A program made the translations under genes and the position numbers. From the NCBI GenBank assembly GCA_036274235.1, contig DASUGC010000226.1, positions 1 through 57,251 of the forward strand: 57,251 nucleotides of DNA. The letters run 5' to 3'. Source of the stretch: Vicinamibacterales bacterium. Its GTDB lineage: Bacteria > Acidobacteriota > Vicinamibacteria > Vicinamibacterales > SCN-69-37. Under the pieces are notes generated by a model. It was not told the origin of the DNA. It was given only the letters and a program-made list of their open reading frames with translations, and ran no database searches. The stretch's first letter is position 1. Every line of letters starts with the position of its first letter. Below are positions 1 through 57,153 of the stretch, piece by piece.

Positions 1-49
1 GAACCCTTGGACCGAACCCTTGGACCTTTGGCCCATGGACCCTTGGACC
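1..49. repeat. Short tandem repeat block (unit GAACCCTTGGACC / GGACCCTTGGACC) at the window edge
   Basis: GAACCCTTGGACC occurs at 1-13 and 14-26, followed by TTTGGCCCATGGACCCTTGGACC (27-49). Reverse-complement units (GGTCCAAAGGTCC) recur at 49181-49208, and a palindromic copy lies at 1183-1195. Confidence 0.8.
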
Positions 50-1200
50 AATGTCGTATCTGGGCCGGCGACCATCGCGCGTCACCACCGCATGCCGCCC
101 TGATAAATGGAACAAGCGCACATGCGCTGGACTACGACGACATGTGTTTTGTCTCGCTCGCACACCCGAGCGCGCCGCTGGTGCCGGCGATCGTGGCCGC
201 GGGGGAGTTGGCCGGGGCGTCCGGACGAGCTGTACTCGACGCGTATGTCGTCGGGTTTGAAGTGCAGGCCCGCCTGGGCCAGTTGATGAATCCGCGTCAC
301 TACCAGCGCGGCTGGCACTGCACATCCACGCTGGGTGCGATGAGTGCGGCCGCTGGTGCGGCGCGCGTGCTGGGACTGGATGCCGCCACCACGGCCCACG
401 CCCTCGCGATCGCTGCCTCGTCTGCTTCCGGGCTCAAGGAAAACTTCGGGACGATGGTCAAGCCGCTGCATGCGGGCCTGGCGGCCCGCGATGGAATCAC
501 CGCCGCGCTGCTCGCGCGATCCGGGCTCACAGGCAGCGACAAGGCGCTTGATGGGCCGCAGGGATTCCTGCGTGCCTTTGACAGCGAGCGCGTCGATCTG
601 CGCGCCGCGGTTTCGGATCTCGGATCGCGATGGGAAATCCTCGAGACGGGCGTGACCGTCAAGTTGTATCCCTCGTGCGCCGGCACGCATCCCACGCTCG
701 ATGCGCTTTTGGACCTGCGCGCCGAGCACAGCTTCGAGGCGGACAGCGTTGCCGCTGTGGAAATCGAGGTCGATCCCATCGTGCCGACGATCCTCCTTTA
801 CGACCGGCCGGCGACGGCGCTGGAAGGGAAGTTCAGCATGCCGTTCTGCGCGGCCGCCGCCATCGTCTTTGGGCGTGTCGGCATCGATACGTTCGATGAC
901 GCCTGCCTGCGCGATTCGCGTGTCGTGGCCGTGATGTCACGAATCACGATGCGGGTAGACGAAGCGATCGGCGCCGGCAGACCCGCGCTCACCGAATCGC
1001 GCGTCCGCGTCCGGCTCACGGACGGCCGGGTCCTCACGAAGGACGCCCACGGCGCTCGCGGCTATCCGTCAAACCCCGCGAGCCAGGCAGAGCTGGATGC
1101 CAAATTCCTGGCCTGCGCCGGCGGAGTTGTGGGGGCTGAAAGCGCCAGTGCCCTGTTGACCCGGCTGAAGCAGCTTGATGATGGACCCTTGGTCCTATAG
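7..1200 (+). CDS. MmgE/PrpD family protein (2-methylcitrate dehydratase-like); 5' end incomplete or replaced by repeat
   Basis: 397-aa ORF. AALINGTSAHALDYDD and the downstream sequence are typical of MmgE/PrpD. From memory, family members have roughly 60-80 more N-terminal residues. Here the first ~15 codons (TTG at 7) are read straight through the GGACC repeat block. Confidence 0.8.
   Translation: MDRTLGPLAHGPLDQCRIWAGDHRASPPHAALINGTSAHALDYDDMCFVSLAHPSAPLVPAIVAAGELAGASGRAVLDAYVVGFEVQARLGQLMNPRHYQRGWHCTSTLGAMSAAAGAARVLGLDAATTAHALAIAASSASGLKENFGTMVKPLHAGLAARDGITAALLARSGLTGSDKALDGPQGFLRAFDSERVDLRAAVSDLGSRWEILETGVTVKLYPSCAGTHPTLDALLDLRAEHSFEADSVAAVEIEVDPIVPTILLYDRPATALEGKFSMPFCAAAAIVFGRVGIDTFDDACLRDSRVVAVMSRITMRVDEAIGAGRPALTESRVRVRLTDGRVLTKDAHGARGYPSNPASQAELDAKFLACAGGVVGAESASALLTRLKQLDDGPLVL
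1183..1195. repeat. GGACCCTTGGTCC palindromic copy of the edge repeat unit
   Basis: Lies in the last codons (…DDGPLVL*) of the PrpD-like CDS. It has the same unit as 1-49 with one change, which makes it self-complementary (GGACC CTT GGTCC). Confidence 0.6.
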
Positions 1201-1214
1201 GGTTTACACTTCCA

Positions 1215-1234
1215 TTGGCGGCGATCCCCGCCAA
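1215..1234 (+). terminator. Hairpin after the PrpD-like gene (candidate terminator)
   Basis: TTGGCGG (1215-1221) pairs with CCGCCAA (1228-1234) around a 6-nt loop, 15 nt after the stop. There is no U tract. Confidence 0.35.
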
Positions 1235-1383
1235 ACCTCTCTGACCCGGCCCCAGCTTGGGTCATCCCGCAAGGACGAGAGGCAAAGGGGGGCACACTCC
1301 CGGATCGGCATCGGAACCTTTGCGCCGCCAGGCGGCGCTGCTGGGGAGCGCTCCGCCATGGCTTTGTGCGAAGGGATACGACG

Positions 1384-2076
1384 ATGCCGACGAACAAGGA
1401 CTTCAAACGACTGATTCGCGCCCGGATGGAAAAGACGGGCGAGGCGTACACGAGCGCTCGCTTGCAACTGCTTCGCGCGAGTGCGACGACGGGTACGACA
1501 GGTACGACGGGTACGACAGGTACGGGGTCATTCCCGGCGCTCGCGGGCATGTCGGATGCGTCCGTCAAGAAAGCGACCGGGTGCAGCTGGGAGAAATGGG
1601 TCGCCGCGCTCGATTACGCCGGCGCGTTCGACTGGTCGCATCGATCGATCGCGGATTACGTCAAGTACACCTACAAGACGCCGAGCTGGTGGGCCCAGAT
1701 GGTGGCGGTCGGGTACGAGCGCATCAAAGGGCTGCGGGCGAAGGGACAGCAGCGCGCCGGCGGGTTCGAAGCGACGCGAAGCAAAGCCATCGCCGCATCG
1801 CCCCAGCGTGTCTATCGCGCGTTCACGGACGCGCGCGTGCGCAAGACGTGGCTGCCCGGCGTGACCCCGAAGCTGCGCAAATCCACACCCAACCGCGTCG
1901 TGCGGATGGCGTGGGAAGACGGTTCCTTTGTCGAAGCGTGGCTGACCGGCAAGGCGGGCAAGACGGTGGCGCGAATCGAGCACCGCAGGCTTGGCAGCCA
2001 GGGCAGTGCCGACGAACGGCGAGCATTCTGGGCAGAGCGGCTCCATACCCTGGCCGTCGCAGTCAGGAAGCCGTAG
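1384..2076 (+). CDS. Hypothetical two-domain protein (N-terminal helical motif, (TTG)n linker, C-terminal SRPBCC-like region)
   Basis: ATG at 1384 (MPTNKDFKRLIRARMEKTGEAYTSAR…) in frame with ORF 1366-2076. The C-terminal half (…ASPQRVYRAFTDARVRKTWLPG…) resembles SRPBCC/AHSA1-type proteins. This domain call is by eye and weak. Confidence 0.55.
   Translation: MPTNKDFKRLIRARMEKTGEAYTSARLQLLRASATTGTTGTTGTTGTGSFPALAGMSDASVKKATGCSWEKWVAALDYAGAFDWSHRSIADYVKYTYKTPSWWAQMVAVGYERIKGLRAKGQQRAGGFEATRSKAIAASPQRVYRAFTDARVRKTWLPGVTPKLRKSTPNRVVRMAWEDGSFVEAWLTGKAGKTVARIEHRRLGSQGSADERRAFWAERLHTLAVAVRKP
1483..1527 (+). repeat. 9-bp tandem repeat (GGTACGACR) inside a CDS, encoding TTGTTGTTGTTGTG
   Basis: Units are GCGACGACG GGTACGACA GGTACGACG GGTACGACA GGTACGGGG. 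An exact 18-bp duplication is present (1486-1503 = 1504-1521). The reverse-complement unit GTCGTACC recurs at 49242-49286. Confidence 0.9.
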
Positions 2077-2087
2077 CTCACGGGCTG

Positions 2088-2118
2088 GCGGGTGGCAGGC
2101 GAGCCGGCTGCCACCCGC
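2088..2118 (+). terminator. GC-rich hairpin, candidate intrinsic terminator
   Basis: GCGGGTGGCAG (2088-2098) pairs with CTGCCACCCGC (2108-2118), an 11-bp stem with a 9-nt loop, 12 nt after the stop at 2076. Confidence 0.5.
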
Positions 2119-3113: not shown

Positions 3114-3169
3114 GGGATAACCCCGTCGTCCCGTTATCCCGTCGCCCCGTTACCCACGTTGCCCGTGAC
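3114..3169. repeat. Hairpin plus 8-bp-period CCCGTNNN repeat just beyond the peptidase stop
   Basis: GGGATAAC (3114-3121) pairs with GTTATCCC (3133-3140). Units are CCCGTCGT CCCGTTAT CCCGTCGC CCCGTTAC CCACGTTG CCCGTGAC. The block ends at the stop codon of the minus-strand gene (3170). Confidence 0.7.
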
Positions 3170-5212
3170 TCATTGCAAATACGTCTTCAGCCAGCCAAAT
3201 ACTTCCTCGTGCCATCGCTTGCTGTTGAGCGGCTTGAGCACCCAGTGGCCCTCGTCGGGAAACACGAGGGCTTTGCTCGCCACGCCGTTGCGCCGCAGGG
3301 CCGTGAAGAGCTGCAGGCCCTGATCGACCGGCACGCGATAATCCAGCTCATTCGTGATGACCAGCGTGGGCGTCTTGATTTGCTGGGCGTAGAGGTGCGG
3401 CGACCATTTGGCGACGTGCTCGCGGCCAGCCGCGCTCCAGGGTGGCCCGCCGGCCTCCCACTCGGAAAACCACAGCTCTTCCGTCGCGAGCGCCATCGAA
3501 TCCAGGTTGAACACGCCGTCGTGGCTGACGGCCGCCTTGAAGCGATTCGAATGTCCGATGATCCAATCCACGGCGTAGCCGCCGTAGCTCGCGCCCGCGA
3601 TGCCCTGGCGCGCGGCGTCCACGTACGGCAGCTTCACCGCCGCGTCGAAGACAGCCGTGAGATCGGTCATCACCTTGCCGCCCCAGTCCTGCGTGATCTC
3701 GTCCACGAACTTCTGTCCGAAACCGAACGACCCGCGAGGATTGGGCGCGACGATGACCCAGCCTTGCGCCGCCCAGAGCGTGGGATTCCATCTCGACGAC
3801 CACCCGTCGCCCCATTCGCCCTGCGGGCCGCCGTGAATCATGAACACGACCGGGTACTTCTTCGCCGGATCAAACGCGGGCGGCCGGACCACCCAGTACT
3901 GCACCGGCGTGCCGCCGGCGCCCGGCACGGTAAAACTCTCGGGCGGGTTCATCGCGACCGTCTTGAGCCACGAGTCGTTTTCATGCGTGAGTTGCGTGGA
4001 CGCCGACCCGCTCCTGGTCACATAGATTTCAGCCGGCGACGTCATCGTCGATTTTGAATAGACGATGGCGTTTCCGCGCGCGCCAACGGCGCTGATCGAT
4101 CCGCCTCGCGCGACCAGTTCGGGCGCGCCGCCGGCGAATGGGACGCGATACAGGTTGTCCAGACCCTGATTCGCGGCCGTGAACAGGATCGACTGCCCGT
4201 CCGGACTCAGCGTGAACTCGCTGACCGACACGTCCGGCGTCGTGAACACCGTGCGCCTGGCGTTGGTCGCGCGGTCGTAGACATCCAGGTACCACCGATC
4301 GGATTCAAAACCAGGCCGCCGTTGCGCGCGCACGATGAGCGACTTACCGTCGGCGGTAAACACCGGTTCTACATCCGCGGCCGGGTTCGGCGTCAGCTTC
4401 ACGGCCGTCCCGCCGCTGACCGGGACCAGCCACACGTCATTGTTGGTGGTCCACGCCTCGCGATCGTTTCCTTCGCGATTGGACACGAACGCGATCGACT
4501 TGCCGTCCGGCGTAAACGCAATCGCCGCATCTTCCTGCTGTCCGGGCGGGGAGTCGAAGTCGCCGGGCGTCAAATCGCGCGCTGGCCATGCGCCGCCGGC
4601 GGCCGTGGGCGCGACGAAGACGTGATGCCGGATGCCTTCGCGCCACTCATCCCAGTGACGGAAGAGCAGGCGCGTCAGCACATGCACCTTGACGGGATCC
4701 GCGTCGGCCGCAGCCCGCCGCGCTCGATTGCACGCGTCGTCCGCGCAGTCCGGATAGACGTCCGCAACGAACGCCACTGATGCGCCGTCTGGAGAGATGA
4801 CGAGCGGCGGCTGGACGCCACCGGCCACGTTGGTGATCTTGCGGATGCTGGCGCCGGAAGCGTCGGCCACATAGACCTGCGGGTCGCCGTCGCGCGAGGA
4901 GATGAATGCGATCTGACGGCCATCAGGAAACCAGCGCGGCGTGTTCTCGGACTTGTCGCCGGCGATGAGGGCCCGCGCTGATCCCGCGGCGGACGCGATC
5001 CAGATGTCCGCGTTCCGCTTGCCGGCCGCCACATCCGTCGTCGTTCGCACGAACGCGACCGAACCATCGGGCGCGACTTGCGGATCGGTGACGCGGACGG
5101 CGACCAGAAGATCGTTGATGGTCATCGGCCGGCCGGCCTGCGCGGCCATTCCCGCCACGAGGGCGGTGCTGATGACGCTGCAAAGAAGGAGAAATCGGCG
5201 CCCGGTTTTCAT
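3170..5212 (-). CDS. S9 family serine peptidase (prolyl oligopeptidase / acylaminoacyl-peptidase type) with N-terminal beta-propeller; secreted
   Basis: 680 aa. N-terminal signal-like MKTGRRFLLLCSVISTALVAGMAAQA. TolB-like SPDG repeats are present. The catalytic motif GASYGGY is followed by later D and GHW. Confidence 0.9.
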   Translation of the reverse strand: MKTGRRFLLLCSVISTALVAGMAAQAGRPMTINDLLVAVRVTDPQVAPDGSVAFVRTTTDVAAGKRNADIWIASAAGSARALIAGDKSENTPRWFPDGRQIAFISSRDGDPQVYVADASGASIRKITNVAGGVQPPLVISPDGASVAFVADVYPDCADDACNRARRAAADADPVKVHVLTRLLFRHWDEWREGIRHHVFVAPTAAGGAWPARDLTPGDFDSPPGQQEDAAIAFTPDGKSIAFVSNREGNDREAWTTNNDVWLVPVSGGTAVKLTPNPAADVEPVFTADGKSLIVRAQRRPGFESDRWYLDVYDRATNARRTVFTTPDVSVSEFTLSPDGQSILFTAANQGLDNLYRVPFAGGAPELVARGGSISAVGARGNAIVYSKSTMTSPAEIYVTRSGSASTQLTHENDSWLKTVAMNPPESFTVPGAGGTPVQYWVVRPPAFDPAKKYPVVFMIHGGPQGEWGDGWSSRWNPTLWAAQGWVIVAPNPRGSFGFGQKFVDEITQDWGGKVMTDLTAVFDAAVKLPYVDAARQGIAGASYGGYAVDWIIGHSNRFKAAVSHDGVFNLDSMALATEELWFSEWEAGGPPWSAAGREHVAKWSPHLYAQQIKTPTLVITNELDYRVPVDQGLQLFTALRRNGVASKALVFPDEGHWVLKPLNSKRWHEEVFGWLKTYLQ

Positions 5213-9490: not shown

Positions 9491-9504
9491 CGGAAAACAG
9501 GAAA

Positions 9505-9581
9505 CCACGAAGCGCATGAAGGGCATAAAGGTTTTGGGGGCAAACCCAAACCGTTCTTCATGTGCTTCATGCCCTTCATGG
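9505..9581. repeat. Imperfect palindrome built from inverted sets of 9-bp units (CATGAAGNN)
   Basis: The left arm is CACGAAGCG CATGAAGGG CATAAAGGT (9506-9532). The central part is a GGTTTTGGG…CCCAAACC hairpin. The right arm is TTCTTCATG TGCTTCATG CCCTTCATG (9554-9580). The arms pair at about 22 of 27 positions. The element fills the spacer between the acyl-CoA dehydrogenase stop and the CoA-transferase start. Confidence 0.85.
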
Positions 9582-9587
9582 TTGACG

Positions 9588-10742
9588 TCAGTACGATCTT
9601 GGCAGGCCGAGAACTTTCTCGGCGACAAACGAGAGGATGAGGTTGGTCGAGATCGGCGCCACCTGGTAGAGCTTCGTCTCCCGGAACTTGCGTTCGATGT
9701 CGTAGTCCTCCGCAAAGCCAAAGCCGCCGTGCGTCTGGACGGCGACGTTCGCCGCTTCCCAGGAGGCGTCGGCGGCCAGGAGCTTCGCCATGTTGGCCTC
9801 CGCGCCGCACGGCTCGCCGCGATCGAACAGTTCCGCCGCGCGGACGCGCATCAGATCGGCGGCCTCCACGTTCACGTGCGCGCGCGCAATGGGGAACTGG
9901 ACACCCTGGTTCTGGCCGATCGGCCGGTTGAAGACCACGCGCTGGTTGGCGTACTTGGTGGCGCGCCCGATGAACCAGCGGCCGTCGCCGACGCATTCGG
10001 CGGCGATCAGAATCCGCTCCGCATTGAGGCCGTCGAGCAGATACCGGAAGCCCTGGCCCTCCTCGCCGATCAGCGCGGAGGCCGGCACCTCCAGATCGTC
10101 AAAGAACAACTCCGTCGTCGCGTGATTCATCATCGTACGGATCGGCCGAATCGTCAGGCCGTGCCCGACCGCGTCGCGCAAATCGACGAGGAGGATGGAC
10201 AAGCCCTCGCTGCGTTTCCTGACCTGTTCAGCCGGCGTCGTGCGGCAGACGAGCAGGAGCAGATCCGAATGCTCGGCGCGCGAGATCCAGACTTTCTGTC
10301 CACGGACAATGTACCGGTCGCCATTGCGCGTGGCGGTCGTCTTCATCTGCGTCGTATCGGAGCCGGTCGTCGGCTCGCTCACGCCAAAGGCCTGCAGGCG
10401 AAGCTCGCCACGGGCGATGCGCGGCAGGTACTCCCGCTTCTGCGCATCGGACCCGTGACGCAGCAGCGTGCCCATCGTGTACATCTGCGCATGACAGGCG
10501 CCGCTGTTGGCGCCGCTGTGGTTGATTTCTTCCAGAATCACCGACGCTTCGGCCAGGCCCAGTCCGGAGCCGCCGTATGTTTCCGGGATCAAGGCCGCCA
10601 GGTAGCCGGCGTCCGTCAGCGCGTTGACGAAGGTTTCAGGATATGCGCGCCTGGCATCCAGATCGCGCCAGTACGCGTCGGGAAACGATCGGCAGAGCTC
10701 GCGGACCGCGCGTCGCAGGTCACTGTGACTTTCGTTGGCCAC
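9588..10742 (-). CDS. Acyl-CoA dehydrogenase
   Basis: GTG at 10742 (VANESHSDLRRAVRELCRSFPDAYW…) within ORF 9588-10913. The sequence is typical ACAD (GGSGLGLAEA, GSDTTQMKTTA, C-terminal FAEDYDIERKFRETKLYQV). The upstream ORF part overlaps the divergent gene. Confidence 0.85.
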   Translation of the reverse strand: MANESHSDLRRAVRELCRSFPDAYWRDLDARRAYPETFVNALTDAGYLAALIPETYGGSGLGLAEASVILEEINHSGANSGACHAQMYTMGTLLRHGSDAQKREYLPRIARGELRLQAFGVSEPTTGSDTTQMKTTATRNGDRYIVRGQKVWISRAEHSDLLLLVCRTTPAEQVRKRSEGLSILLVDLRDAVGHGLTIRPIRTMMNHATTELFFDDLEVPASALIGEEGQGFRYLLDGLNAERILIAAECVGDGRWFIGRATKYANQRVVFNRPIGQNQGVQFPIARAHVNVEAADLMRVRAAELFDRGEPCGAEANMAKLLAADASWEAANVAVQTHGGFGFAEDYDIERKFRETKLYQVAPISTNLILSFVAEKVLGLPRSY

Positions 10743-12381: not shown

Positions 12382-12395
12382 CAGGTTGCAGGTTG
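12382..12395. repeat. CAGGTTG x2 heptamer tandem in a 3' spacer
   Basis: Exact 7-bp duplication 6 nt after the stop at 12376. The unit resembles CAGGTAA at 43756-43776. Confidence 0.5.
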
Positions 12396-22670: not shown

Positions 22671-22676
22671 CTCAGA

Positions 22677-22779
22677 AACTGACCACGCACAACTGACAAT
22701 TGCGGATCGAACCCAACGTGCCAGTTGTGAGTTGTGAGTTGTGAGTTGTGAGTTGTTAGTTGTTAGTCGTGAGTTTGTC
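22677..22779. repeat. Heptamer array (GTTGTGA x4, GTTGTTA x2, GTCGTGA, GTTTGTC) with inverted AACTGAC units upstream
   Basis: There are 8 contiguous 7-bp units at 22724-22779. The left arm AACTGAC CACGCAC AACTGAC (22677-22697) is close to the reverse complement of these units. The block lies between convergent genes, and its last three units encode the C-terminus (…DKLTTNN*) of the minus-strand gene. Confidence 0.9.
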
Positions 22780-26712: not shown

Positions 26713-26761
26713 GAGGCCGGGGCTCATTTCCGGTCCCACCAGGGAAATGAGCCCCGGCCTC
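26713..26761. repeat. Palindromic element, 19-bp perfect arms (GAGGCCGGGGCTCATTTCC)
   Basis: 26713-26731 is the exact reverse complement of 26743-26761, with an 11-nt loop. It lies 6 nt upstream of the amine-oxidase start in a divergent spacer. The arm is 18/19 identical to 31481-31499. Confidence 0.9.
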
Positions 26762-30201: not shown

Positions 30202-30205
30202 ATCC

Positions 30206-30244
30206 GGGCCGGGTCTATTTTCTTCAAGAAAATAGGCCCGGCCC
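30206..30244 (+). terminator. Hairpin after the amidase gene; possibly a distant member of the GGCCGGGGCTCATTTCC family
   Basis: GGGCCGGGTCTATTTTCTT pairs with AAGAAAATAGGCCCGGCCC (one G-T pair), 5 nt after the stop. The arm resembles 26715-26730 (GGCCGGG[T/G]CT[-/C]ATTT). Confidence 0.55.
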
Positions 30245-30295
30245 CAATTTCCGTCCGTTGTCATATCCTCACCCTGTCTTGGGTGAGGCGTTCGC

Positions 30296-43195: not shown

Positions 43196-43732
43196 ATGGC
43201 CGGCATGATTGACGACCTTCGCTATCCCATCGGCAAGTGGCCACGTAACCCATCGGCAGATGCGAGCACGTGCGCGCCGATGATCGAGCAGATCGCGGCG
43301 GCGCCGGCGGCCCTGGCGGCCGCGGTGAAAGGCCTGACGGACGCGCAGCTCGATACGCCGTATCGCGAGGGCGGATGGACGCCGCGTCAAATTGTGCATC
43401 ACATCGCCGACAGCCACATGAACGCGTACATCCGCTTCAAGCTGTGCATGACGGAAGACCAGCCGACCGTGAAGCCCTACAACGAGAAGCTGTGGGCCGA
43501 GACCGCGGACGGCAAGACCGCGCCCGTCGCCGTGTCGCTCCAGTTGATCGACACGCTGCACAATCGGTGGGTCCAGTTCCTGCGGTCGATTGACAGGGGC
43601 GCGTACGGGCGCACGGTCATGCACCCGGAAAACGGCCCGATGAGCCTGACGGAGATGCTGCAGTTGTACTCCTGGCACGGCCGCCACCACACGGCGCACA
43701 TCACGGGGCTCAGACAGCGGATGGGGTGGTAG
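43196..43732 (+). CDS. DinB/YfiT family metal-dependent hydrolase
   Basis: LRYPIGKW, WTPRQIVHHIADSH and WHGRHHTAHI form a YfiT-like His triad. An alternative start lies at 43205. Confidence 0.85.
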   Translation: MAGMIDDLRYPIGKWPRNPSADASTCAPMIEQIAAAPAALAAAVKGLTDAQLDTPYREGGWTPRQIVHHIADSHMNAYIRFKLCMTEDQPTVKPYNEKLWAETADGKTAPVAVSLQLIDTLHNRWVQFLRSIDRGAYGRTVMHPENGPMSLTEMLQLYSWHGRHHTAHITGLRQRMGW

Positions 43733-43740
43733 CGGTTTCG

Positions 43741-43778
43741 ACAGGTACAAGGCTGCAGGTAACAGGTAACAGGTAAAA
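43741..43778. repeat. CAGGTAA x3 heptamer tandem (plus degenerate ACAGGTACA) in a 3' spacer
   Basis: CAGGTAA occurs at 43756-62, 43763-69 and 43770-76. GACAGGTAC at 43739-43747 also occurs inside the 1483-1527 array. Confidence 0.75.
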
Positions 43779-43785
43779 TCTGCCG

Positions 43786-45219: not shown

Positions 45220-47165
45220 TTTCGCGCATCCGCCGCGCGATGCTCGCGGCCGTCGTCGGCGCGCTGGCCGCGGCCCTCAGTCTGGTTGCCGCTTACATCA
45301 TTCATCCGGGCCTGGTCTTTGAGATGGACCGGCCGCTGCCGTCGTTCATCCAGGGCATCTACGGCCAGGAAGCCGACGCACAGGGAACGTACTCGTGGAC
45401 ATCGGCCCACGTGTCGGCCGAGTTTCCCGGCCTGGATCGACAGGTCGGCTGGGCGTGCACGATCCGCTTCCGGGGGCCGCGGCCGGCGGGTGAGCCGACC
45501 CCGACGCTCGACGTGCGCGTGGATGGCCGTCCGGCCGCACACGTGACGGCGACCCCTGAGTATCAGGATCTCGGCGTCATGCTGCCGCCGCAGGCCAACG
45601 CGACAGGCGCCTCGATCCTCATGGACATCGCGCCGGCGTTCACGCCCGGCACCGCCGACACGCGAGTCCTGGGCGTGCAGCTCGATCGCTTTCTCTGCCG
45701 TCCAGCCTCCTCGATTGTCCGGCCGCCGTCCGACACGCTGTCGCAGGCCACGCTGGCCGCCGCGATTTTCTCGGCCGGCCTGGCGCTTCTGGGATTGTCG
45801 CTGAGCAGCGCGATGTTTGCGGCCGCGGCAATCGGCCTGGGCCAGACCTTGATGATGGTGATGGGCTCCGGGATGTACGGTGACTATCCCGCCAGGCTCC
45901 CGTGGCTCGCGCTGGGCGTCGTGGGGCCGGCATTTCTGGTAGCGCGGGTCATCGAACGCTGGCGGCACGAGCCGCTGTCTTCGACAGCGCGCTTCGTCGT
46001 CGCCTGCTGTGCCGCCGTGCTGTTCCTCAAGCTGGCAGGCCTCTACCATCCCGCGAAGCCGGTCATCGACGCCGACTTCAACGCCCATCGCCTGGAATGG
46101 GTGCTCGCCGGGCGGTTCTTCTTCACGCAGCCGCTGCCCAATGGCGTGGCGATGCCATACGCGATCGGGTTCTACATTTTCTCGGCGCCCTGGGGCTGGC
46201 TGTTCGGCGCGACCAAGGCGGTCGTCTGGACCGTTGCGGCCAGCATGGACGTGGTGGCGGGCGCGTTGCTGTACCCGGTGATCCTGAAAGCCTGGGGCGA
46301 CCGGCGCGCCGCCGCGGCGGCCGCCGTGTTCTTTCAACTCGTTCCCGCGCCGTTCGTCACGCTCGGCAACGCGAACCTGCCGAACATGTTCGGCCAGGCG
46401 ATGGCGCTCATGGCGATGCTGGCGGCCGTGGCGTGGCGATTGGATGCGCGACGGTTCCCGCGGTTGGCCGGCTTCACCATCCTGGCGGCCTGGGCGCTCT
46501 GCGCGCATGTCAGCACCGTCACGATCTTTACGGCCACCATCGGCGTGCTCATCGTGCTGTATTTCTGGCGCGGCGACCCTGATCGCCGCCGTGCCGCAGG
46601 GGCGATGGCGCTGGGGGTTGCGGCCGCCCTGGCCTTCGCCTGGTTTGCCTACTATCAGCACTGGCTGGACGTGTTCCGATCCGCGTTTTCGCTGATGTTC
46701 CGTCCGCCCACGCCGGAAGAGGCCGCGGCGGCGGCCGTCGTCAAAGGCAACATGACGCTGGCGCAGCGAGTCGCGGATCTGGCGACCCAGGCCGTGAATG
46801 CGGCGGGCTGGCCGCTCCTGATCCTGTCGGCGATCGGCATCTGGAGCCTGGTCCGGCGGCGCGAGCGCGGGCGGCTGGAATCGGCGCTGATGGCGTGGGC
46901 GATCGTGTGGATCGTGTTCTCGGCGTCGACTGTGTTCGCCCGCGTCGATCAAGCGTACGTGCGCTACTCGGCGGAATTCCTGGGCCGCATCAACCTGGCG
47001 ACCGTCCCGCTCATCGCCATTCTCGCCGCTCGCGGCGCGGCGTCAGGCTGGGAGGCCGAGACCCCGGCCGGCCTGCGGCGTCCGTTGCAGACCGTCGCGG
47101 CTGTGCTCTGCGTCTGGGCGCTTCTCGTCGCGATGTGGGCGTGGATGGGGTGGTTTACACGCTGA
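45216..47165 (+). CDS. Large polytopic membrane protein (GT-C-like glycosyltransferase candidate)
   Basis: 649 aa with an ATGA overlap to the propeller gene. It has an N-terminal TM segment, an extracytoplasmic domain of about 170 aa, then 10 or more TM segments. The family call is speculative. Confidence 0.6.
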   Translation: MISRIRRAMLAAVVGALAAALSLVAAYIIHPGLVFEMDRPLPSFIQGIYGQEADAQGTYSWTSAHVSAEFPGLDRQVGWACTIRFRGPRPAGEPTPTLDVRVDGRPAAHVTATPEYQDLGVMLPPQANATGASILMDIAPAFTPGTADTRVLGVQLDRFLCRPASSIVRPPSDTLSQATLAAAIFSAGLALLGLSLSSAMFAAAAIGLGQTLMMVMGSGMYGDYPARLPWLALGVVGPAFLVARVIERWRHEPLSSTARFVVACCAAVLFLKLAGLYHPAKPVIDADFNAHRLEWVLAGRFFFTQPLPNGVAMPYAIGFYIFSAPWGWLFGATKAVVWTVAASMDVVAGALLYPVILKAWGDRRAAAAAAVFFQLVPAPFVTLGNANLPNMFGQAMALMAMLAAVAWRLDARRFPRLAGFTILAAWALCAHVSTVTIFTATIGVLIVLYFWRGDPDRRRAAGAMALGVAAALAFAWFAYYQHWLDVFRSAFSLMFRPPTPEEAAAAAVVKGNMTLAQRVADLATQAVNAAGWPLLILSAIGIWSLVRRRERGRLESALMAWAIVWIVFSASTVFARVDQAYVRYSAEFLGRINLATVPLIAILAARGAASGWEAETPAGLRRPLQTVAAVLCVWALLVAMWAWMGWFTR

Positions 47166-47171: not shown

Positions 47172-47222
47172 GATGGAGCGCGGGGTCTTCAGACCCCGGG
47201 TCTAAAGACCCGGGGCTCCATC
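47172..47222. terminator. Compound bidirectional terminator with mutually exclusive inner hairpins
   Basis: The outer stem pairs GATGGAGC with GCTCCATC. Inner hairpin A is CGGGGTC-TTCA-GACCCCG (47181-47198). Inner hairpin B is CCCCGGGTC-TAAA-GACCCGGGG (47194-47215). The two share 47194-47198. Confidence 0.6.
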
Positions 47223-48123: not shown

Positions 48124-48361
48124 TATCCAGATAGAGTAACGCCAAGGGCTATGGTCTGGAGCAGCCACGACGCGGTTTCAGAGTGCGACGAAATTCGGGT
48201 GATAGCCGGATGACAGGACAGAGGCCGCAGGGCGCCTCAAGGCGACTTGACGAATGCGGCGAGCGAACGAGCGCCAGCGGGTGAGCCACGAGAGCGGCGC
48301 GCGACTTGCTTGCGAGCATTTCGCAAGAGCCAAGCCGCACGAGCGAGCGTGTGAGGGGGGT

Positions 48362-48380
48362 TGGGGGACGAAGTCCCCCA
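48362..48380 (+). other. Hairpin 10 nt upstream of the MpaB-like start
   Basis: TGGGGGAC GAA GTCCCCCA: an 8-bp stem with a 3-nt loop. Confidence 0.4.
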
Positions 48381-49163: not shown

Positions 49164-49180
49164 GGAAGATCTCTCTTGTC

Positions 49181-49208
49181 GGTCCAAAGGTCCACGGTCC
49201 AAAGGTCC
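49181..49208. repeat. GGTCCAAAGGTCC-type repeats (reverse complement of the units at 1-49)
   Basis: GGTCCAAAGGTCCACGGTCCAAAGGTCC, with GGTCC spaced 9, 7 and 9 nt apart. Confidence 0.85.
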
Positions 49209-49241: not shown

Positions 49242-49286
49242 GTCGTACCCGTCGTACCTGTCGTACCTGTCCGTACTTGTCCTACG
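49242..49286. repeat. 9-bp tandem repeat GTCGTACCN (reverse complement of the array at 1483-1527)
   Basis: Units are GTCGTACCC GTCGTACCT GTCGTACCT GTCCGTACT TGTCCTACG. Confidence 0.9.
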
Positions 49287-49378
49287 CGTCGCAACCTGTC
49301 TACGATTCACGGAATGCGTGCACCGTGCTCCGCCATGTGTCGGGACGCCGCGTCCGCGATTGAGCGGTCGCGCGGACG

Positions 49379-54700: not shown

Positions 54701-55078
54701 AGCCGTCGTGCCTTCATGCCGCCCGACCGCGGCCGCCGCGGCTTCGCGATAGGCGCCGACGACATCGCGCAGATCTTCGGGATCGATCGAGCGGGACAGT
54801 TCCGTGGAGCCCACGAGATCGCAGAACAGGAACGTCATGTGCCGGCGTTCGATTGCCGACGTGATGGTCACGGACGTCGATGTATCGGTTCTAGCGGGCG
54901 CCGGCCGTGAAGGAGGCGGCGGCGCTGCCGTGAGCGGCGTGCCGCACTGGGAGCAGAAGCGGGCATCCGGTGAGGCCTCGGCGCCGCACGATGGGCAGCG
55001 GGGGACCAGCGCGGTGCCGCACTGAGCGCAGAATCGGGCGCCCGGCGCGCTGAGCGCTTCGCACTGCGGGCAGTTCAT
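51716..55078 (-). CDS. Double zinc-ribbon + class III adenylate/guanylate cyclase + AAA/STAND ATPase + TPR protein
   Basis: ATG at 55078 (MNCPQCEAL…CPSCGAE…). Cyclase motifs FLFCDLVGSTELS and GDGILVYFG. P-loop GEAGVGKSRL. There is a long TPR-like C-terminus. About 1120 aa. Confidence 0.9.
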   Translation of the reverse strand: MNCPQCEALSAPGARFCAQCGTALVPRCPSCGAEASPDARFCSQCGTPLTAAPPPPSRPAPARTDTSTSVTITSAIERRHMTFLFCDLVGSTELSRSIDPEDLRDVVGAYREAAAAAVGRHEGTTAQYYGDGILVYFGFPVAHEDDGRRAVQAGLDIVEAVSALNARLSTDQSLCLAVRIGIHTGLAVVGDVGGVNRTERLAMGDTPNVAARVQALAKPNTVVISASTFELVRDHFRTERLGPQVFKGVTDPIEVFRVVEAAGADERRGRKPQSYRTGYVGREPVLAALTAAWKDAVNGSGRMVVVTGEAGVGKSRLLQVFREGLTSEPHYEIECFGSPYHASSALYPFSDMLRTRLRLNDEPDPRNRLERVRAHLMEHHADVDGALPLVAHLLGIPPDAGYTPIALHPLTQKQRTLEVLLTLVLAPAERRPTLLVIEDAHWVDPTTLELVGALLERLQGSRLLVLLSARPTFHAPWPPRDSLVSLTVSDLSPADTERLIANVTRGKQLPREVLTLLVKKSDGNPLFVEEMTRMLLESGWLVEREGAYVLTGPMPDASVPTRLQDLLRARLDRMEAEARMVMQLGSTVGREFAYELLVEVLPDEAATIRTGLQQLLDAGLVFATGSGFMIKHELIKDVAYDSLLKRTRQQYHERIALALEGAFAMNAQGQPERIAQHWTRAGQPLRAAPYWLQAGQKAIASSSVAEAASHLQHGLDQLAAVPASMARDRIELDILSTLGTALTIQKGWAAPEVADAYSRAHALSKRVGDSPSLFWVLWGLWAFYLVKGDQTQGLTFAERMMQFARAREDESLEIESDFSLGLSHYYMGDLPRARTHLDRAVANYVPARHHANCFLSCQDVGVTSRSVAAMVRYLQGDITQAVAASADAVRLADELKHPFSQAYALGCAAWFHSYRRDPGAMAQRAAETMALSQAQALGWWLLWGMIFAGRGQADAGQIDAGIAQMDQALGMYRGVGTGMVVPYFLTQLADAHMMQGDFDRALERLEDARRLASQGGEVIASAEIDRLEGEIQWRRATAGSGTPTTADAAAVELLFQRALDTARRQGARLFELRAATSLARIGAPHAAQILRDVMAALPENTETRDLADARHVLAQDTITL

Positions 55079-55899
55079 GCGCGTGGGGCGGGCAGCAGCG
55101 GCAGATCGCGCGCCCGCACGCGCGGCCATTCATGGTGCCGCTCGTGCTCGGTCAGGATGAGAAGCGGCTCGCGGCCGAAGAGGATGCCGGCCAGTCGCAC
55201 CACCCCATGCGGAACCGGGAGAGGAAAGGTGCCGACGTGACCGTCGAGGCTGTGCAGCACGTGATGAAACACGAAGCTGGCGAAGCCCACGCTGAGGCGG
55301 AGCGCGAACCAGTACACGAGGAACGCCGCCGGATTGATCGCGGCCACGATCACGAAAGCGGCGCAGCGAATGGCCATTTCGACGGCAAGGGCGCGGCTCA
55401 GGCCGTGCGTACGAATCCACGTGGCCAGCGCGTGCTCCGGCGAAATCATCGCCATGCCGAACGCGCGCCAGGGTCCGCCGATGATTTGATACCGCTCGGG
55501 ATCGCGATCGGTCGAGGCGAACCGGTGGTGGGCAAAGTGAATCGCCCGATGTTCCCGGTACCCGAGGCCGATTGGCGTCTCCAGGATCATCGTCAGCCGG
55601 TGAAACGCCGGAACTTCCTGTGCCGACGCCGCGTGCAGCAATTCATGGAGCGCCAGCGCCAGCCGCAGATAGATGAGCGGCACCGCGACCAGAAGCAGCC
55701 AGGCAGGCAGCAGGCGGGCGAGCGCAAGGCCGAGAGCCAGGTACAGCAGGGACACAAGACCGAGCGTGAGGCGCACGTAGTGCCGCGCGTCGGTCCGATC
55801 GCGGAGCAGGGCGGCCGGTGGCGAGAACGTGCGGGCCGCTGACGCCAGCAGCGGCGTGTCATCCAGCGTGGAATCTCCTGTGCAAATCTCCCTCCTCAT
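55075..55899 (-). CDS. Fatty-acid-desaturase-like di-iron membrane protein
   Basis: Histidine boxes HELLH, HFAHHRF, HHVLH and HERHH. 274 aa. ATGA overlap with the downstream cyclase gene. Confidence 0.8.
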   Translation of the reverse strand: MRREICTGDSTLDDTPLLASAARTFSPPAALLRDRTDARHYVRLTLGLVSLLYLALGLALARLLPAWLLLVAVPLIYLRLALALHELLHAASAQEVPAFHRLTMILETPIGLGYREHRAIHFAHHRFASTDRDPERYQIIGGPWRAFGMAMISPEHALATWIRTHGLSRALAVEMAIRCAAFVIVAAINPAAFLVYWFALRLSVGFASFVFHHVLHSLDGHVGTFPLPVPHGVVRLAGILFGREPLLILTEHERHHEWPRVRARDLPLLPAPRA

Positions 55900-55922
55900 C
55901 GCTGCGACCTCAGACGAAAACC

Positions 55923-55967
55923 GCTAGAGCCGTTTTCGGCTCAACGATGCACGAAAACGGCTCTAGC
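55923..55967. promoter_or_regulatory. Perfect 16-bp inverted repeat in a divergent promoter region (operator or RNA hairpin)
   Basis: GCTAGAGCCGTTTTCG (55923-38) and CGAAAACGGCTCTAGC (55952-67) are separated by 13 nt. An extra ACGAAAAC copy at 55914-21 can pair with 55932-38. The right arm ends 8 nt before the ATG at 55976. Confidence 0.6.
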
Positions 55968-55975
55968 ATACAGCG

Positions 55976-57085
55976 ATGGCGCGCGTGGCGATCGTCGGTG
56001 CGGGTCCAGCCGGATCGTCGGCGGCCTGGCACCTGGCGAAGCGGGGGCAGCAGGTGGACCTGATCGATCGATCGGTGTTCCCGCGCGCCAAGACGTGCGG
56101 CGACTGGATTCCGCTCAACGCGGTCGAGGAACTCGCGGCGCTGGAGCTCGGGCGCATTGCCGCGGACGCCAACGCGGCCGATTGCGCGACCATCACGCGG
56201 ACGACGATCGGTGCACCGGGCGGGCGAATGTCTCACGCCACGTCGCGTGCGCCCGCGTTCTGCATGCCGCGCCTGACGTTCGATGCCATTCTCTGGCGGC
56301 ACGCGATTGACGCCGGGTGCCGGCCGATCCAGCGCATGGTTCGTGATCCCGCGGCTCTCAACGCTGACTATGACGTGGTCATTGACGCACGCGGAGCGGC
56401 GGCGGGTGCGGCAAACGCCGTGGCCCTGCGCGCGTACTGGACTGTGCCACGGAGTGTGCTCGCGCCGGGTGAAGAGGCGACGGTACAAATCCACACGGAC
56501 ACGCGATTCGAGCGCGGCTACGGCTGGATGTTTCCCGTCGGATCCGACAACGGCCAGGTGCGCATGAATGTCGGTGTGGGGCTGTGGGCCGACGACAGTG
56601 TGCGAGGACACAGCGTCGCGGATTTCCACGATCGGTTCCTGGCGACCAATGCCGTGCTCGCCCGATGGATGCCGAAATCGAGTCGGGAGCGGCCGGTCGG
56701 CTGTCATGTCGGTCTTGGCATCGGCGCGAATCCCGTCGCGGGCGCGGGCGTGCTCCGCATCGGGGATGCCGCGAACCTTGCCGATCCGCTGACGGGCGAC
56801 GGCATCGCCAATGCGCTCAGGAGCGGGCGGCTCGTCGCCGGGGCCGTCGCGGATTCCACGGATCGCCGCGCGGCCGCCGTCGCCTGGCAGGCTCGCCACG
56901 ACGAATCATTCGTGCCCGAGTTCACGAGGGCGCTTCGTCTTCAGCGGCTGCTCGCGGGAACGGCGTCCAAAAATCTGACTTCGGCAATCCTCGCGATCAT
57001 GCCGCCGCTGCGATCGCGCGTGCATGCGGCGGTGTTCGGCGAGATGACATATGGGGAAATGATGGGAACGACGAGAACGACGTGA
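55976..57085 (+). CDS. FAD-dependent oxidoreductase, geranylgeranyl-reductase family
   Basis: MARVAIVGAGPAGSSAAWHLAKRG and KTCGDWI, with a later GDAANLADPLTGDGI motif. The C-terminal …MMGTTRTT* is read from the 9-bp repeat. Confidence 0.85.
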   Translation: MARVAIVGAGPAGSSAAWHLAKRGQQVDLIDRSVFPRAKTCGDWIPLNAVEELAALELGRIAADANAADCATITRTTIGAPGGRMSHATSRAPAFCMPRLTFDAILWRHAIDAGCRPIQRMVRDPAALNADYDVVIDARGAAAGAANAVALRAYWTVPRSVLAPGEEATVQIHTDTRFERGYGWMFPVGSDNGQVRMNVGVGLWADDSVRGHSVADFHDRFLATNAVLARWMPKSSRERPVGCHVGLGIGANPVAGAGVLRIGDAANLADPLTGDGIANALRSGRLVAGAVADSTDRRAAAVAWQARHDESFVPEFTRALRLQRLLAGTASKNLTSAILAIMPPLRSRVHAAVFGEMTYGEMMGTTRTT

Positions 57086-57153
57086 GCGACGAGAACGACG
57101 GGAACTGTAGGAACTTGTTAAGAACGGTCGTTTTCCTCGTTCTCGTCGTTGCT
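57064..57153. repeat. 9-bp repeat array (GRGAACGAC) followed by inverted units (GTCGTTNNC)
   Basis: Units are GGGAACGAC GAGAACGAC GTGAGCGAC GAGAACGAC GGGAACTGT AGGAACTTG TTAAGAACG, then GTCGTTTTC CTCGTTCTC GTCGTTGCT. The array starts inside the CDS; the stop is at 57083-85. Confidence 0.9.

Follow-up and report, generated by a model that had tools for sequence, protein, structure and literature searches.

The short-period tandem arrays in the window, the whole 57,251-nt stretch analysed here, are real copies of a few repeat families dispersed throughout the genome and occur far above chance. With a probability of roughly 0.6, we consider them to be STRR-like dispersed short-unit repeat elements that are not tailored to individual genes as signals, that are tolerated at gene ends, and that are partnered with PF05635 cassettes in the way REPs are partnered with RAYTs. 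The window derives from a soil metagenome-assembled genome of an uncultured member of the Vicinamibacterales (Acidobacteriota), and the assembly is 80% complete.

Arrays in the window and their repeat families

The combination of TRF, a repeat finder, and direct reading of the letters confirmed short-period arrays at the loci named in the original prediction, the one at 12382-12395 being weak when taken alone, and agreed with it that they are neither CRISPRs nor GC-stem/U-tract terminators. The features are as follows.

1..50, minus strand: truncated head of the GGTCCAAGG composite element, period 13/8, cut by the contig end
1486..1524, plus strand: ACGACRGGT x4.3, 9 nt (GTCGTACCY family), in frame as (Thr-Thr-Gly)n
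3114..3169, unstranded: about six degenerate 8-nt units, CCCGTCGY / CCCGTTAY, with 8/16-nt periodicity at 3120-3164
9503..9583, minus strand: hairpin with arms (9503-9530 and 9556-9583) of about three CATGAAGSR 9-nt units
12382..12395, plus strand: CAGGTTG x2, between a TPP-enzyme stop and an aldehyde dehydrogenase start
22677..22779, unstranded: AGTTGTG x7.6 (22723-22775) with a degenerate inverse arm (22677-22698), between convergent genes
43741..43778, plus strand: CAGGTAA x3 (43756-43776) with degenerate CAGGTAC / CAAGGCTG units, 7 nt
48255..48380, unstranded: GAGCG-rich stretch, then a GGGGGTTGGGGG/CCCCC hairpin, within a divergent spacer
49180..49208, plus strand: GGTCCAAA x3.6, 8 nt, fragment of the GGTCCAAGG family
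49242..49300, plus strand: GTCGTACCY x4.8-6, 9 nt, 79 nt upstream of a Ser/Thr kinase start at 49379
57064..57153, plus strand: hairpin with GAACGACGR 9-nt arms (57066-57105 and 57127-57150)

The element at 1..50, which reads ...ACATT followed by GGTCCAAGGGTCCATGGGCCAAAGGTCCAAGGGTTCGGTCCAAGGGTTC on the minus strand, aligns with approximately 35-40 genomic copies through a common 45-nt head. The array at 1486..1524 lies in the linker of a gene at ~1384-2076 and contains an exact 18-nt duplication (1486-1521); the first 40 residues of the protein and its C-terminal domain are conserved in two relatives (G001 and G003), and the linker is variable, with REP-like palindromes at that place in both. 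The array at 3114..3169, with a local 11-bp hairpin (-20.6 kcal/mol, z -2.3), had been described as starting at a stop codon; it does adjoin the stop of a minus-strand S9 peptidase gene (3170-5212), while the stop codon on its left ends a 35-aa ORF that is unlikely to be a gene. The 9503..9583 hairpin (inverted arms of 28 nt, 82% complementary; repeat calls at 9509-9531 and 9556-9580) occupies the 97-nt spacer 9491-9587 between an acyl-CoA dehydrogenase stop (9588) and a CoA-transferase start (9490), and the array at 43741..43778 takes up a 53-nt spacer between a DinB-family gene and a beta-propeller gene. Two arrays overlap gene-end codons (22756-22779 and 57064-57085): the final units of the former encode the last codons and the stop of a minus-strand HpcH-type lyase gene, and the stop codon of an FAD-oxidoreductase gene (57083-57085) is situated within the left arm of the latter, whose inverted arms measure 24 nt and are 83% complementary. 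The pair at 12382..12395 has only two copies, falls under the TRF threshold, and by our estimate is at chance level on its own, several exact 7-nt tandem duplications being expected per 57 kb; its CAGGTTG unit also occurs in the arms of a cassette described below (C138) and at about six other loci. Regarding the stretch pointed out at 48255-48355, its GAGCG-rich composition and location in a divergent spacer stand; it belongs to a separate REP-like repeat family with no tandem array. A related sequence, CTGCGAGCGCAGCGAGCG, occurs 34 times between genes, and 13 of these copies lie no more than 200 nt from an array.

Clustering of the units bore out the predicted recurrence of common cores and defined a few genome-wide families, namely GTCGTACCY, GGGAACGAC, GGTCCAAGG, AAGTCAG, and CAGGTTG. 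In the GGTCCAAGG family, the 45-nt head and the order of variant units are common to the ~35-40 loci, the flanks of which are unrelated; this fixed head and fixed order indicate that the element was copied whole and did not grow in place. The AAGTCAG arrays are likewise accompanied by a conserved non-repeat flank. In a survey of pattern hits across 119 other sampled genomes of the order, GTCGTACCY, with 126 hits in this genome and 113 in one genome of another genus (G008), gave none in 116 of the 119 and 7, 1, and 1 in three more genomes of the same family. Additionally, one genome from another family of the order had arrays at near-background level.

Genome-wide position, folding, and turnover

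In the genome-wide scan, the real intergenic regions yielded 209 period 7-9 arrays, compared with 0-6 in dinucleotide-preserving shuffles, and periods of 6, 10, and 11 were nearly missing. Among the period 7-9 arrays scoring at least 50, the intergenic shares were 48/61, 45/49, and 65/97, in a genome of which only ~8% is non-coding. According to a crude, purpose-made gene caller, on which all array-to-gene distances and spacer classes rest, array density per kb fell from 1.72 in convergent spacers through 0.99 in co-directional ones to 0.56 in divergent ones, a roughly threefold excess of convergent over divergent (chi-square ~29, 2 df). By the same gene calls, a median of 14 nt separated an array from the stop codon before it and a median of 39 nt from the start codon after it. 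The proposed placement at gene 3′ ends therefore holds as a positional bias, which is a moderate enrichment and no rule: divergent spacers hold 37 arrays, and other arrays are found at former operon junctions, upstream of starts, around tRNA genes (a tRNA-Leu gene is enclosed by inverted array arms), and in an in-frame protein linker. Copy number spans 2 to 16 units, and contig ends are ~5-fold enriched in arrays; together with the exact 18-nt duplication, this upholds the suggestion that the arrays are slippage-prone.

The inverted sets at 9505, 22677, and 57064 fold into hairpins as anticipated, with computed energies of -42.9 (z -6.3), -37.4 (z -2.7), and -40.7 kcal/mol (z -4.1), respectively. 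Genome-wide, 57 array hairpins (median stem length 30 bp) were identified, 17 of them in 315 convergent spacers versus 5 in 376 divergent ones. The strength of these hairpins, their enrichment in convergent spacers, the array starts shortly past stop codons, the arm complementarity that survives unit change, and the inverted arms around the tRNA-Leu and IVS-protein genes, which resemble processing stems, would suit host-serving RNA elements, that is, U-tract-independent terminators, 3′-end stabilisers against exonucleases, or RNase III stems separating transcripts, comparable to REP in E. coli operons. The similar repeats of Xanthomonas, moreover, are mostly transcribed (PMC4692102). We nevertheless regard this explanation as unlikely, given that an inverted partner is present for 35% of the arrays and missing in ~65%, and that direct-only arrays showed no fold over background (z ~0; z +0.7 for 43741..43778). 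In solo hairpins, sense-strand mismatches are weakly biased toward G.U over A.C (44 versus 27), whereas cassette arms have no such asymmetry (91 versus 85), and in neither class does it discriminate RNA from DNA pairing.

Comparison with relatives points in the same direction. The junction holding the 9505 hairpin separates two genes that run in the same direction and serve one pathway, and a terminator there would leave the second gene untranscribed. In most relatives, this junction is 0-15 nt long, and the remaining relatives bear hairpins, half elements, or other 7-mers at it; whole elements are present or absent with precise boundaries. Downstream of the aldehyde dehydrogenase gene, the orthologous sites of 22677..22779 in 15 relatives are occupied by CTCAGGG x6, by REP-like palindromes, or by other units, or are empty. 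Array copies are thus present, absent, or swapped for other units at orthologous sites, and since the closest relatives lack arrays at the same sites, the arrays are dispensable. A general terminator or 3′-UTR role, as proposed in the original prediction, is consequently unsupported by either anatomy or comparison, considering the 9505 junction, the coding linker, the sites upstream of starts and at tRNA and small genes, and the unit swaps in relatives.

Cassettes of a four-helix-bundle gene

All three PF05635/TIGR02436 '23S IVS protein' loci of the genome are bracketed by inverted arrays of major families, the arms being the GGTCCAAGG element in C190, CAGGTTG in C138, and GAACGACGR, the unit of 57064..57153, in C45. 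The family assignment is based on a PF05635 score over its cut-off, on TIGR02436, and on PDB 2GSC; the proteins are four-helix bundles of ~120-145 aa, many with very basic C-terminal tails, for which we know of no nuclease or recombinase activity. Within the Vicinamibacterales, 52 of 59 PF05635 loci have complementary arms with alignment scores above the 99th percentile of controls (median score 65, versus 20-23 in controls). For example, the cassette next to radA has orthologues in at least 14 genomes, where the 7-mers differ and the arms are still complementary; the arms remain complementary as the unit changes between genera. For GTCGTACCY, the largest family, no cassette was found in the 80%-complete assembly, such cassettes being present only in relatives. 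Outside the order, cassettes are situated on plasmids of Nostoc punctiforme, Calothrix brevissima, Anabaena sp. 90, and Gemmatirosa. The cassette is also seen at Xanthomonas XCC0516, the PF05635 protein of PDB 2GSC, at the start of which a supplementary table of Rehm et al. (PMC4692102) lists a GGGAATC repeat; the text of that paper makes no mention of S23, helix bundle, or intervening, and we found no description of a heptamer repeat paired with a four-helix-bundle gene in the literature searched. Neither the dispersed-family copies nor the role of these families as cassette arms had been part of the original prediction.

The cassette arms carry their own genome's dominant unit. AAGCCAG x3 gave 174 hits in G017, whose cassette has this unit, versus 0-19 elsewhere; AACTTCG x3 gave 580 in G013 and 364 in G018; and AGGGCAA x3 was high in genomes with an AGGGCAA cassette and zero in five others. 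Many unit hits were also seen in G136 (AACTTCG) and G161 (AGGGCAA), where no cassette with the respective unit was found among the portion of their cassettes examined, and in G028, which has six cassettes, a 400-kb sample contained few solo arrays. The matching could equally be read as genome-wide array homogenisation overwriting the cassette arms.

Avd reportedly binds both nucleic acid and a reverse transcriptase. Its homology to PF05635 (PMC10053308), the basic C-terminal tails, and the unit common to cassette arms and dominant solo arrays, genome by genome, would agree with arrays that bind, multivalently, the cognate four-helix-bundle protein, a putative regulator- or nucleoid-like factor of which each paralogue would have its own unit; the arrays would be kept by the host for gene control. 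This appears quite improbable to us: the genes adjoining arrays have unrelated functions, array sites are not stable among close relatives, a period of 7-9 nt does not hold one helix face, and one family still has ~19 loci although its cassette in this genome is a frameshifted pseudogene. Purely local microsatellites, with in-place replication slippage and unit similarity from polymerase mutational bias in lieu of dispersal, are scarcely tenable, since the 18-nt duplication, the range of copy numbers, and the polymerase-footprint idea discussed for the heptamer excess (PMC4692102) are set against the identical head and variant order of the composite family, which already contradict them there, the conserved AAGTCAG flanks, the genome-specific dominant units that differ between genera, and the precise boundaries of whole elements.

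Relation to known repeats and a possible origin

The arrays are best read as the acidobacterial version of the cyanobacterial STRR and Xanthomonas heptamer repeats. STRR heptanucleotides were reportedly described in heterocystous cyanobacteria by Mazel and co-workers in 1990, and they are fingerprinting targets because they vary between strains. The arrays resemble them as tandem short units of few families dispersed in the non-coding DNA of one lineage, and differ in phylum and in including 8- and 9-mers. As in 23S rRNA IVS with an S23p/PF05635 ORF, known from Leptospira and Coxiella, where RNase III excises the stem, the gene sits between long complementary flanks that would pair into a stem; in contrast, the cassettes here lie between protein-coding genes and have tandem arrays as arms. 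They share with REP/REPIN and RAYT (Y1 transposase) systems a single-copy gene flanked by inverted copies of a genome-dispersed repeat, and families that are genome-specific, hairpin-forming, extragenic, and located at gene ends, although the flanked gene is a four-helix bundle with no transposase motif and the repeat consists of tandem short units instead of a single 20-40-nt palindrome. Different repeats, namely GGAAACTCGAGTTTCC palindromes and GAGGTC 12-mers, flank the two Y1_Tnp genes of the genome. MITEs and modular repeats such as pneumococcal BOX are likewise small, dispersed, and non-coding, have inverted ends and a variable number of internal modules, and occur at gene ends; here, the modules are just 7-13 nt, no target-site duplication was seen for the array elements, and no transposition machinery, cognate transposase included, was identified.

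Rehm et al. (2015; PMC4692102) reported GGGAATC in Xanthomonas campestris and X. axonopodis and GGGGA(C/T)T in Nostoc PCC 7120, most of the Xanthomonas repeats being transcribed and none having an assigned function. Like ours, these are tandem units of ~7 nt (2-26 copies, hundreds of loci, strongly intergenic) that favour co-directional and convergent spacers and positions <50 nt from gene ends, are depleted in divergent spacers, frequently form convergent inverted pairs, and differ in length and sequence among close relatives. Unlike them, our genome has several unrelated families with periods of 7, 8, 9, and 13, some with a fixed non-repetitive head. Because many of its units, among them AAGTCAG, AGTTGTG, and CAGGTAA, have no G-tracts, G-quadruplex formation cannot be a common property.

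If the arrays are such dispersed elements, each genome would maintain few unit families of 7, 8, 9, or 13 nt in three copy forms: the solo array, the inverted pair that makes a hairpin of ~30 bp, and the inverted pair around a PF05635/TIGR02436 gene, a relative of Avd. New copies would arise by copy-and-paste into non-coding DNA, and replication slippage would make the unit number drift. Arm complementarity may be kept because the folded form, possibly a single-stranded DNA hairpin or a double-stranded RNA stem, is propagated, or because it makes insertion harmless. The bias toward stop codons would follow from the loss of insertions hitting promoters, ribosome-binding sites, or structured coding sequence, and effects on mRNA ends, if any, would be a by-product. 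The mirrored arrays around the four-helix-bundle gene thereby offer a testable lead to the origin of the repeats.

Abundance, families and position of the short tandem arrays

The metagenome-assembled genome (MAG) that includes the window as its contig C226 comprises 3.42 Mb in 252 contigs, is approximately 80% complete, and has a G+C content of 66%. Genes were called with our own simple codon-usage model, whose 2899 predicted genes occupy 92.6% of the genome; these calls are approximate, and the positional statistics of the arrays rest on them, with the genes adjoining arrays checked against Pfam. A genome-wide scan with TRF (score of at least 40) identified 209 intergenic arrays with a period of 7–9 nt, far above the 0–6 obtained when the same spacers were shuffled five times with dinucleotide composition preserved. 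At a score of at least 50, the intergenic share was 48/61 for period 7, 45/49 for period 8, and 65/97 for period 9, in a genome with a non-coding fraction of only about 8%, and periods 6, 10, and 11 were almost missing from the spacers. All array loci listed in the original prediction were recovered by TRF and a repeat finder except 12382–12395, which consists of two 7-mer copies only and is at chance level by itself. Contig ends were also enriched for arrays, by a factor of about five (27 of 504 ends, the block at 1–49 being one case), which fits multi-copy or length-variable sequence breaking assemblies.

Clustering of the canonicalised units, a step suggested with the original prediction, grouped them into a few large families.

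Large unit families, genome-wide, from canonicalised units
GTCGTACCY: 20+16 loci; window arrays at 1486 and 49242, one 9-mer in opposite orientations
CAGGTTG-type: approximately 19 loci
GGGAACGAC: 18 loci; window array at 57064 of this type
GGTCCAAGG: 15+5 loci; window arrays at 1–49 and 49180 of this type
AAGTCAG: 12 loci
AACTGGGG: 11 loci

The window arrays at 12382 and 43741 are of the CAGGT type. Alignment of the copies of the GGTCCAAGG element showed that it is more than a plain repeat: a 45-nt head, GGTCCAAGGGTCC-AYGGTCCAAR-GGTCCAAGGGTTCGGTCC, is common to approximately 35–40 loci with unrelated flanks and precedes a variable tail built of 13-nt units, and a conserved non-repeat flank comes after the AAGTCAG arrays. 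Such a shared order of head and flank is impossible by independent slippage; therefore, the elements were copied, and the arrays are shown to be dispersed, copied families and not local oddities. The proposal of slippage-prone repeats holds for the variation in copy number, which is of the slippage type, but not for the shared order of the elements, which needs copying. Of the hallmarks of MITEs, namely terminal inverted repeats plus a target-site duplication, inverted arms occur with 35% of the arrays, and no target-site duplication was visible at the 35–40 or so aligned copies of the GGTCCAAGG composite element. Arrays of the GTCGTACCY family often carry a good −10-like box (TATAAT, TATAGA, or TACAAT) a few nucleotides after their end, for example at C76:11390, C93:4422, and C165:6735 (other contigs of the MAG). 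The motif TANNNT occurred within 22 nt after 18 of 84 such arrays, versus 8 of 84 on the opposite side, and 22 of 35 downstream neighbours were gene starts; these counts are only suggestive, and the box may be an outward promoter or may reflect insertion next to promoters.

Of the 240 intergenic arrays, convergent spacers contained 52, co-directional spacers 120, and divergent spacers 37, with 31 more at contig edges, corresponding to 1.72, 0.99, and 0.56 arrays per kb for the three spacer types, respectively. In co-directional spacers, the median array begins 14 nt past the upstream stop and ends 39 nt short of the next start. The bias of arrays toward gene 3′ ends noted in the window is thus real, as judged by density and by the 14-nt median, but only moderate, and it agrees with the positions of the Xanthomonas GGGAATC and Nostoc GGGGAYT repeats (Rehm et al., PMC4692102). 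An inverted partner was located within 1.5 kb of 85 of the 240 arrays (35%), compared to 5 in the control.

Folding, turnover and other repeats

The three inverted sets of the window (9505, 22677, and 57064), noted from the sequence as able to form hairpins, all fold strongly, and direct, non-inverted arrays were without structure on folding.

Predicted array hairpins in the window
9498–9590, minus strand: hairpin, −42.9 kcal/mol, z −6.3
57060–57156: hairpin, −40.7 kcal/mol, z −4.1
22671–22785: hairpin, −37.4 kcal/mol, z −2.7

Their repeat arms measure 22–28 nt, the median stem genome-wide is 30 bp, and a U-rich tail is present in the 9498–9590 hairpin only. A consensus scan for intrinsic terminators, i.e., a short GC-rich stem followed by a U-tract, returned 7 sites versus 7.3 in shuffles and none at arrays, in line with the original exclusion of this class; a terminator role is further argued against by a 90-nt hairpin inside a tight co-directional junction at 9505. 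The arrays are likewise not CRISPRs, as had been stated, since their 7–13-nt units are too short and run head to tail with no spacers, versus the 24–48-nt repeats and unique spacers of similar length in CRISPRs.

Orthologous sites in relatives differed in their repeat content. Immediately past the stop of the aldehyde dehydrogenase gene (window 22671), the 15 Vicinamibacterales relatives have six copies of CTCAGGG, a REP-like palindrome of 80 nt, degenerate 7-mers, or GTTCCCGTC units; some have none of these. Between the acyl-CoA dehydrogenase and CoA-transferase genes, where the window has the 9505 hairpin, most of 25 relatives from soil metagenomes have a junction of 0–15 nt, the two closest (88% and 84%) among them; other relatives bear a related hairpin of CGTGAAGG units, a single arm, or half of the window's own element, and further ones an unrelated AACTTAG array or a REP-like palindrome. 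The soil-metagenome scan yielded no relative closer than 88%, and exact-protein look-ups found no strain-level variants. Coding sequences were affected as well. The array at 1486–1524 is part of the reading frame of a real gene, in a variable linker; the N-terminal 40 residues and C-terminal domain of this gene are conserved in two congeners, where REP-like palindromes occupy the same linker. At 22756–22779 (an HpcH-type lyase) and 57064–57085 (an FAD oxidoreductase), array units encode the last 5–7 codons and the stop; therefore, array insertion reshaped the C-termini of both proteins. Gain, loss, and replacement of arrays at orthologous sites are shown to be fast. It is also relevant to annotation that assemblies break at arrays, that gene ends are extended or created by them, and that they enter protein linkers in frame.

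Three tandem copies of GTCGTACCY gave 126 matches in this genome and 113 in a genome from a different genus of its family; three more genomes of the family had 7, 1, and 1, and of the 121 genomes sampled across the order, the other 116 had none. In TRF scans of 400 kb per genome, arrays were present in a congener and in that other genus, with distinct families in either case, and were near background in a genome outside the family.

Several other repeats were observed. A separate REP-like hairpin family (GGGGCTCATTTCC / GAGGTC...TTTCC) is located at window positions 26713–26761, 30197–30253, and 31473–31566, with one copy in frame within a 791-aa monooxygenase/reductase gene. The two Y1_Tnp (RAYT-like) genes of the genome, at C92:4804–5142 and C217:10177–10515, are flanked by GGAAACTCGAGTTTCC palindromes and GAGGTC-containing 12-mers and may be the partners of this family; RAYT-driven REPs were rejected as a reading of the 7–9-nt arrays, which do not flank these genes. 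A near-perfect GGGTCTNNAGACCC palindrome (47172–47222; −40 kcal/mol, z −6.7) is situated between convergent genes, and two copies of its motif lie upstream of the aldehyde dehydrogenase orthologue in genome G006 (locus L004, 2950–3010). The divergent spacer at 48255–48380 contains a GAGCG-rich stretch and a GGGGG...CCCCC hairpin, and intergenic copies of a related element, GCCTGTCCRCCGAAGCTGCGAGCGCAGCGAGCG...GCGAAGGYGG, number 34 and are often immediate neighbours of GGGAACGAC arrays. The divergent spacer separating the genes at 55075–55899 (−) and 55976–57085 (+) contains a perfect 16-bp inverted repeat, GCTAGAGCCGTTTTCG / CGAAAACGGCTCTAGC (55923–55967), the arms of which are 13 nt apart; it looks like an operator. 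At 2272–2892, a small ORF is followed by a PIN-domain gene, with stop and start abutting, an arrangement resembling a VapBC-type toxin–antitoxin pair. A search of genome contigs for loci related to the orphan protein encoded at 45216–47165 found nothing.

The four-helix-bundle cassette and its cognate arrays

All three matches of the genome to PF05635, the family of small four-helix-bundle "23S rRNA IVS proteins", sit between inverted arrays of the large families. We refer to such a gene with its complementary arms as a cassette.

Cassettes of the genome
Contig C190: arms of GGTCCAAGG
Contig C45: arms of GGGAACGAC, 2 units in one arm and 14 in the opposite arm
Contig C138: arms of CAGGTTG/ACAGGTT, enclosing a frameshifted gene copy

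PF05635 scores were 68.7 and 39.2 bits (cut-off 33.8), with 23.6 bits for the third, degraded locus, and TIGR02436 ("four helix bundle protein") scored 57.8–72.4 bits (cut-off 24). The structure PDB 2GSC matches a cassette protein with E = 1.5e-5, and PF05635 is homologous to Avd, a protein of diversity-generating retroelements (DGRs) (PMC10053308). A retroelement or DGR origin was rejected on the basis of the lack of any PF00078 (reverse transcriptase) match in the approximately 80%-complete genome and of the housekeeping neighbours of the cassettes.

The survey of cassettes covered six further genomes at first and then the wider family. Complementary flanks exceeded the 99th percentile of two controls at 52 of 59 Vicinamibacterales loci, with a median alignment score of 65 versus 20–23 in the controls. 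The cassettes found lie between protein-coding genes, with ordinary housekeeping genes as neighbours. Four-helix-bundle genes with GTCGTACCY-type arms were identified in G008 (a genome of another genus of the family) and in the congener G001, and a variant in the congener G003. In at least 14 genomes, which span many genera, one cassette lies beside the start of radA, a shared position from which vertical inheritance follows. Its units vary by genome (AAGTTCG, AACTTAG, AACTYGA, AAGCCAG, CAGGTTG, and others), while its left and right arms are 82–100% complementary in 13 of the 14 genomes and 74% in one, which at the level of the sequences is covariation of long-range pairing. Many of the four-helix-bundle proteins at loci L125–L157 bear very basic, proline-rich C-terminal tails, such as RPRRNKPRRPGDTPPR and KRARRKRRGRS, and two sequence subfamilies occur together in most genomes.

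The arm units also matched the units of the solo arrays, i.e., those enclosing no cassette gene. Three copies of AAGCCAG gave 174 matches, at dozens of loci, in G017, a relative with AAGCCAG cassette arms, and 0–19 in 15 other genomes. For AACTTCG, likewise in three copies, there were 580 matches in G013 and 364 in G018, both with AACTTCG arms, as well as 134 in G149 and 0–1 in G000, G003, G008, and G028. Matches to three copies of AGGGCAA were numerous in G136, G008, G143, G151, G158, and G003, all of which have such cassettes, and absent from five other genomes. The exceptions are G136 for AACTTCG and G161 and G001 for AGGGCAA, genomes for which inspection covered only some of the cassettes. 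These matches indicate that cassette arms and solo arrays evolve together within a genome and diverge between genomes, the same pattern as in REP families and RAYT genes. These counts connect the array class quantitatively with a single small protein family, in that complementary arrays enclose 52 of 59 gene copies, the arms co-vary across genera, and the dominant unit of each genome is the one in its cassette arms.

Relation to heptamer repeats of other phyla and a proposed partnership

Heptamer-type repeats have reportedly been known in cyanobacteria since about 1990. For these and the Xanthomonas repeats, we know of no established origin or function. In Xanthomonas, they have been known since 2015 (PMC4692102). 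The STRR/heptamer long-SSR class (Rehm 2015; Mazel 1990) is characterised by tandem units of approximately 7 nt (6–9) in many copies, one unit dispersed over many loci of a genome, an intergenic bias with divergent depletion and gene-end proximity, and convergent inverted pairs, all of which were found here. The version in soil Acidobacteriota is richer, with several unit lengths and composite heads, and the arrays are a new acidobacterial variant of this known, unexplained class. They do not fall in the G-quadruplex subclass stressed by Rehm 2015 (PMC4692102), where every unit has a G3 tract and four units are preferred: among the units read, GGG is present in GGGAACGAC, ACGACGGGT, and AAGGGTCC, the units AAGTCAG, AGTTGTG, CAGGTAA, and AACGCTG are devoid of it, and copy numbers show no mode at four.

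The link to the protein extends to other phyla. A tblastn search of plasmids with one cassette protein gave mostly Nostoc, Calothrix, and Anabaena matches, and four of the five plasmid loci read contain a gene annotated as "four helix bundle protein" or "S23 ribosomal protein" between inverted heptamer arrays.

Cassette heptamers in other phyla
Nostoc punctiforme: CAGGAGT
Calothrix brevissima: GGGTGTA
Anabaena sp. 90: GACAGGT
Gemmatirosa kalamazoonensis: GGAGGGC

On plasmid pANA02 of Anabaena sp. 90 (43568–45333), the genes on either side of the array-armed gene are cas6 and cas4, which belong to a CRISPR-Cas locus, and upstream there is a very long (GACAGGGAACAGGT)n array. Of the GGGAATC repeats listed for X. 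campestris (Rehm et al., supplementary table, PMC4692102), no. 15 overlaps the start of XCC0516, and XCC0516 is the protein of PDB 2GSC. The terms "S23", "helix bundle", and "intervening" are all absent from the text of that paper (PMC4692102). Our literature search, which was incomplete and does not by itself prove novelty, found no paper linking four-helix-bundle proteins to repeats.

A general role as tRNA processing stems was rejected, as inverted arrays bracket just 2 of 36 tRNA genes. These are a tRNA-Leu gene between inverted composite arms of the GGTCCAAGG type, each at a distance of approximately 140 nt (C232:10790–11365), and a tRNA-Gly gene between inverted AAGTCAG-type arrays (C1:10050–10705). 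The roles suggested in the original prediction, namely U-tract-independent terminators or 3′ UTR stabilisers, protein-binding arrays, and slippage-prone repeats, found partial support only. A host-serving RNA role of the arrays is a live rival. Mismatch counts, compared as a guide to pairing in RNA (RNase III stems) or in DNA, were 44 G·U versus 27 A·C in solo hairpins but 91 versus 85 in cassette arms, and pairing may matter at either level. The stems of 23S rRNA intervening sequences (IVSs) are cut by RNase III.

Our explanation is that the arrays would be semi-autonomous repeat elements persisting where harm is small, such as after stops, at operon junctions, and in disordered linkers, with the folded form being what is propagated or tolerated and the four-helix-bundle gene acting as their partner. 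We tentatively propose, with a probability of roughly 0.3, that the Avd-like "IVS protein" (PF05635/TIGR02436) is a trans-acting partner, each paralogue of which may recognise a 7–9-nt unit of its own, within folded DNA or RNA, and either drive or sustain the spread of this unit and its homogenisation across the genome, in a REP-RAYT-like partnership built on a non-transposase protein. If true, this would give a common origin, as one element class, to the STRR/heptamer repeats of cyanobacteria, Xanthomonas, Acidobacteriota, and Gemmatimonadota and to the protein-coding 23S IVSs. The link to the cassette makes the old question of the heptamer repeats experimentally approachable.
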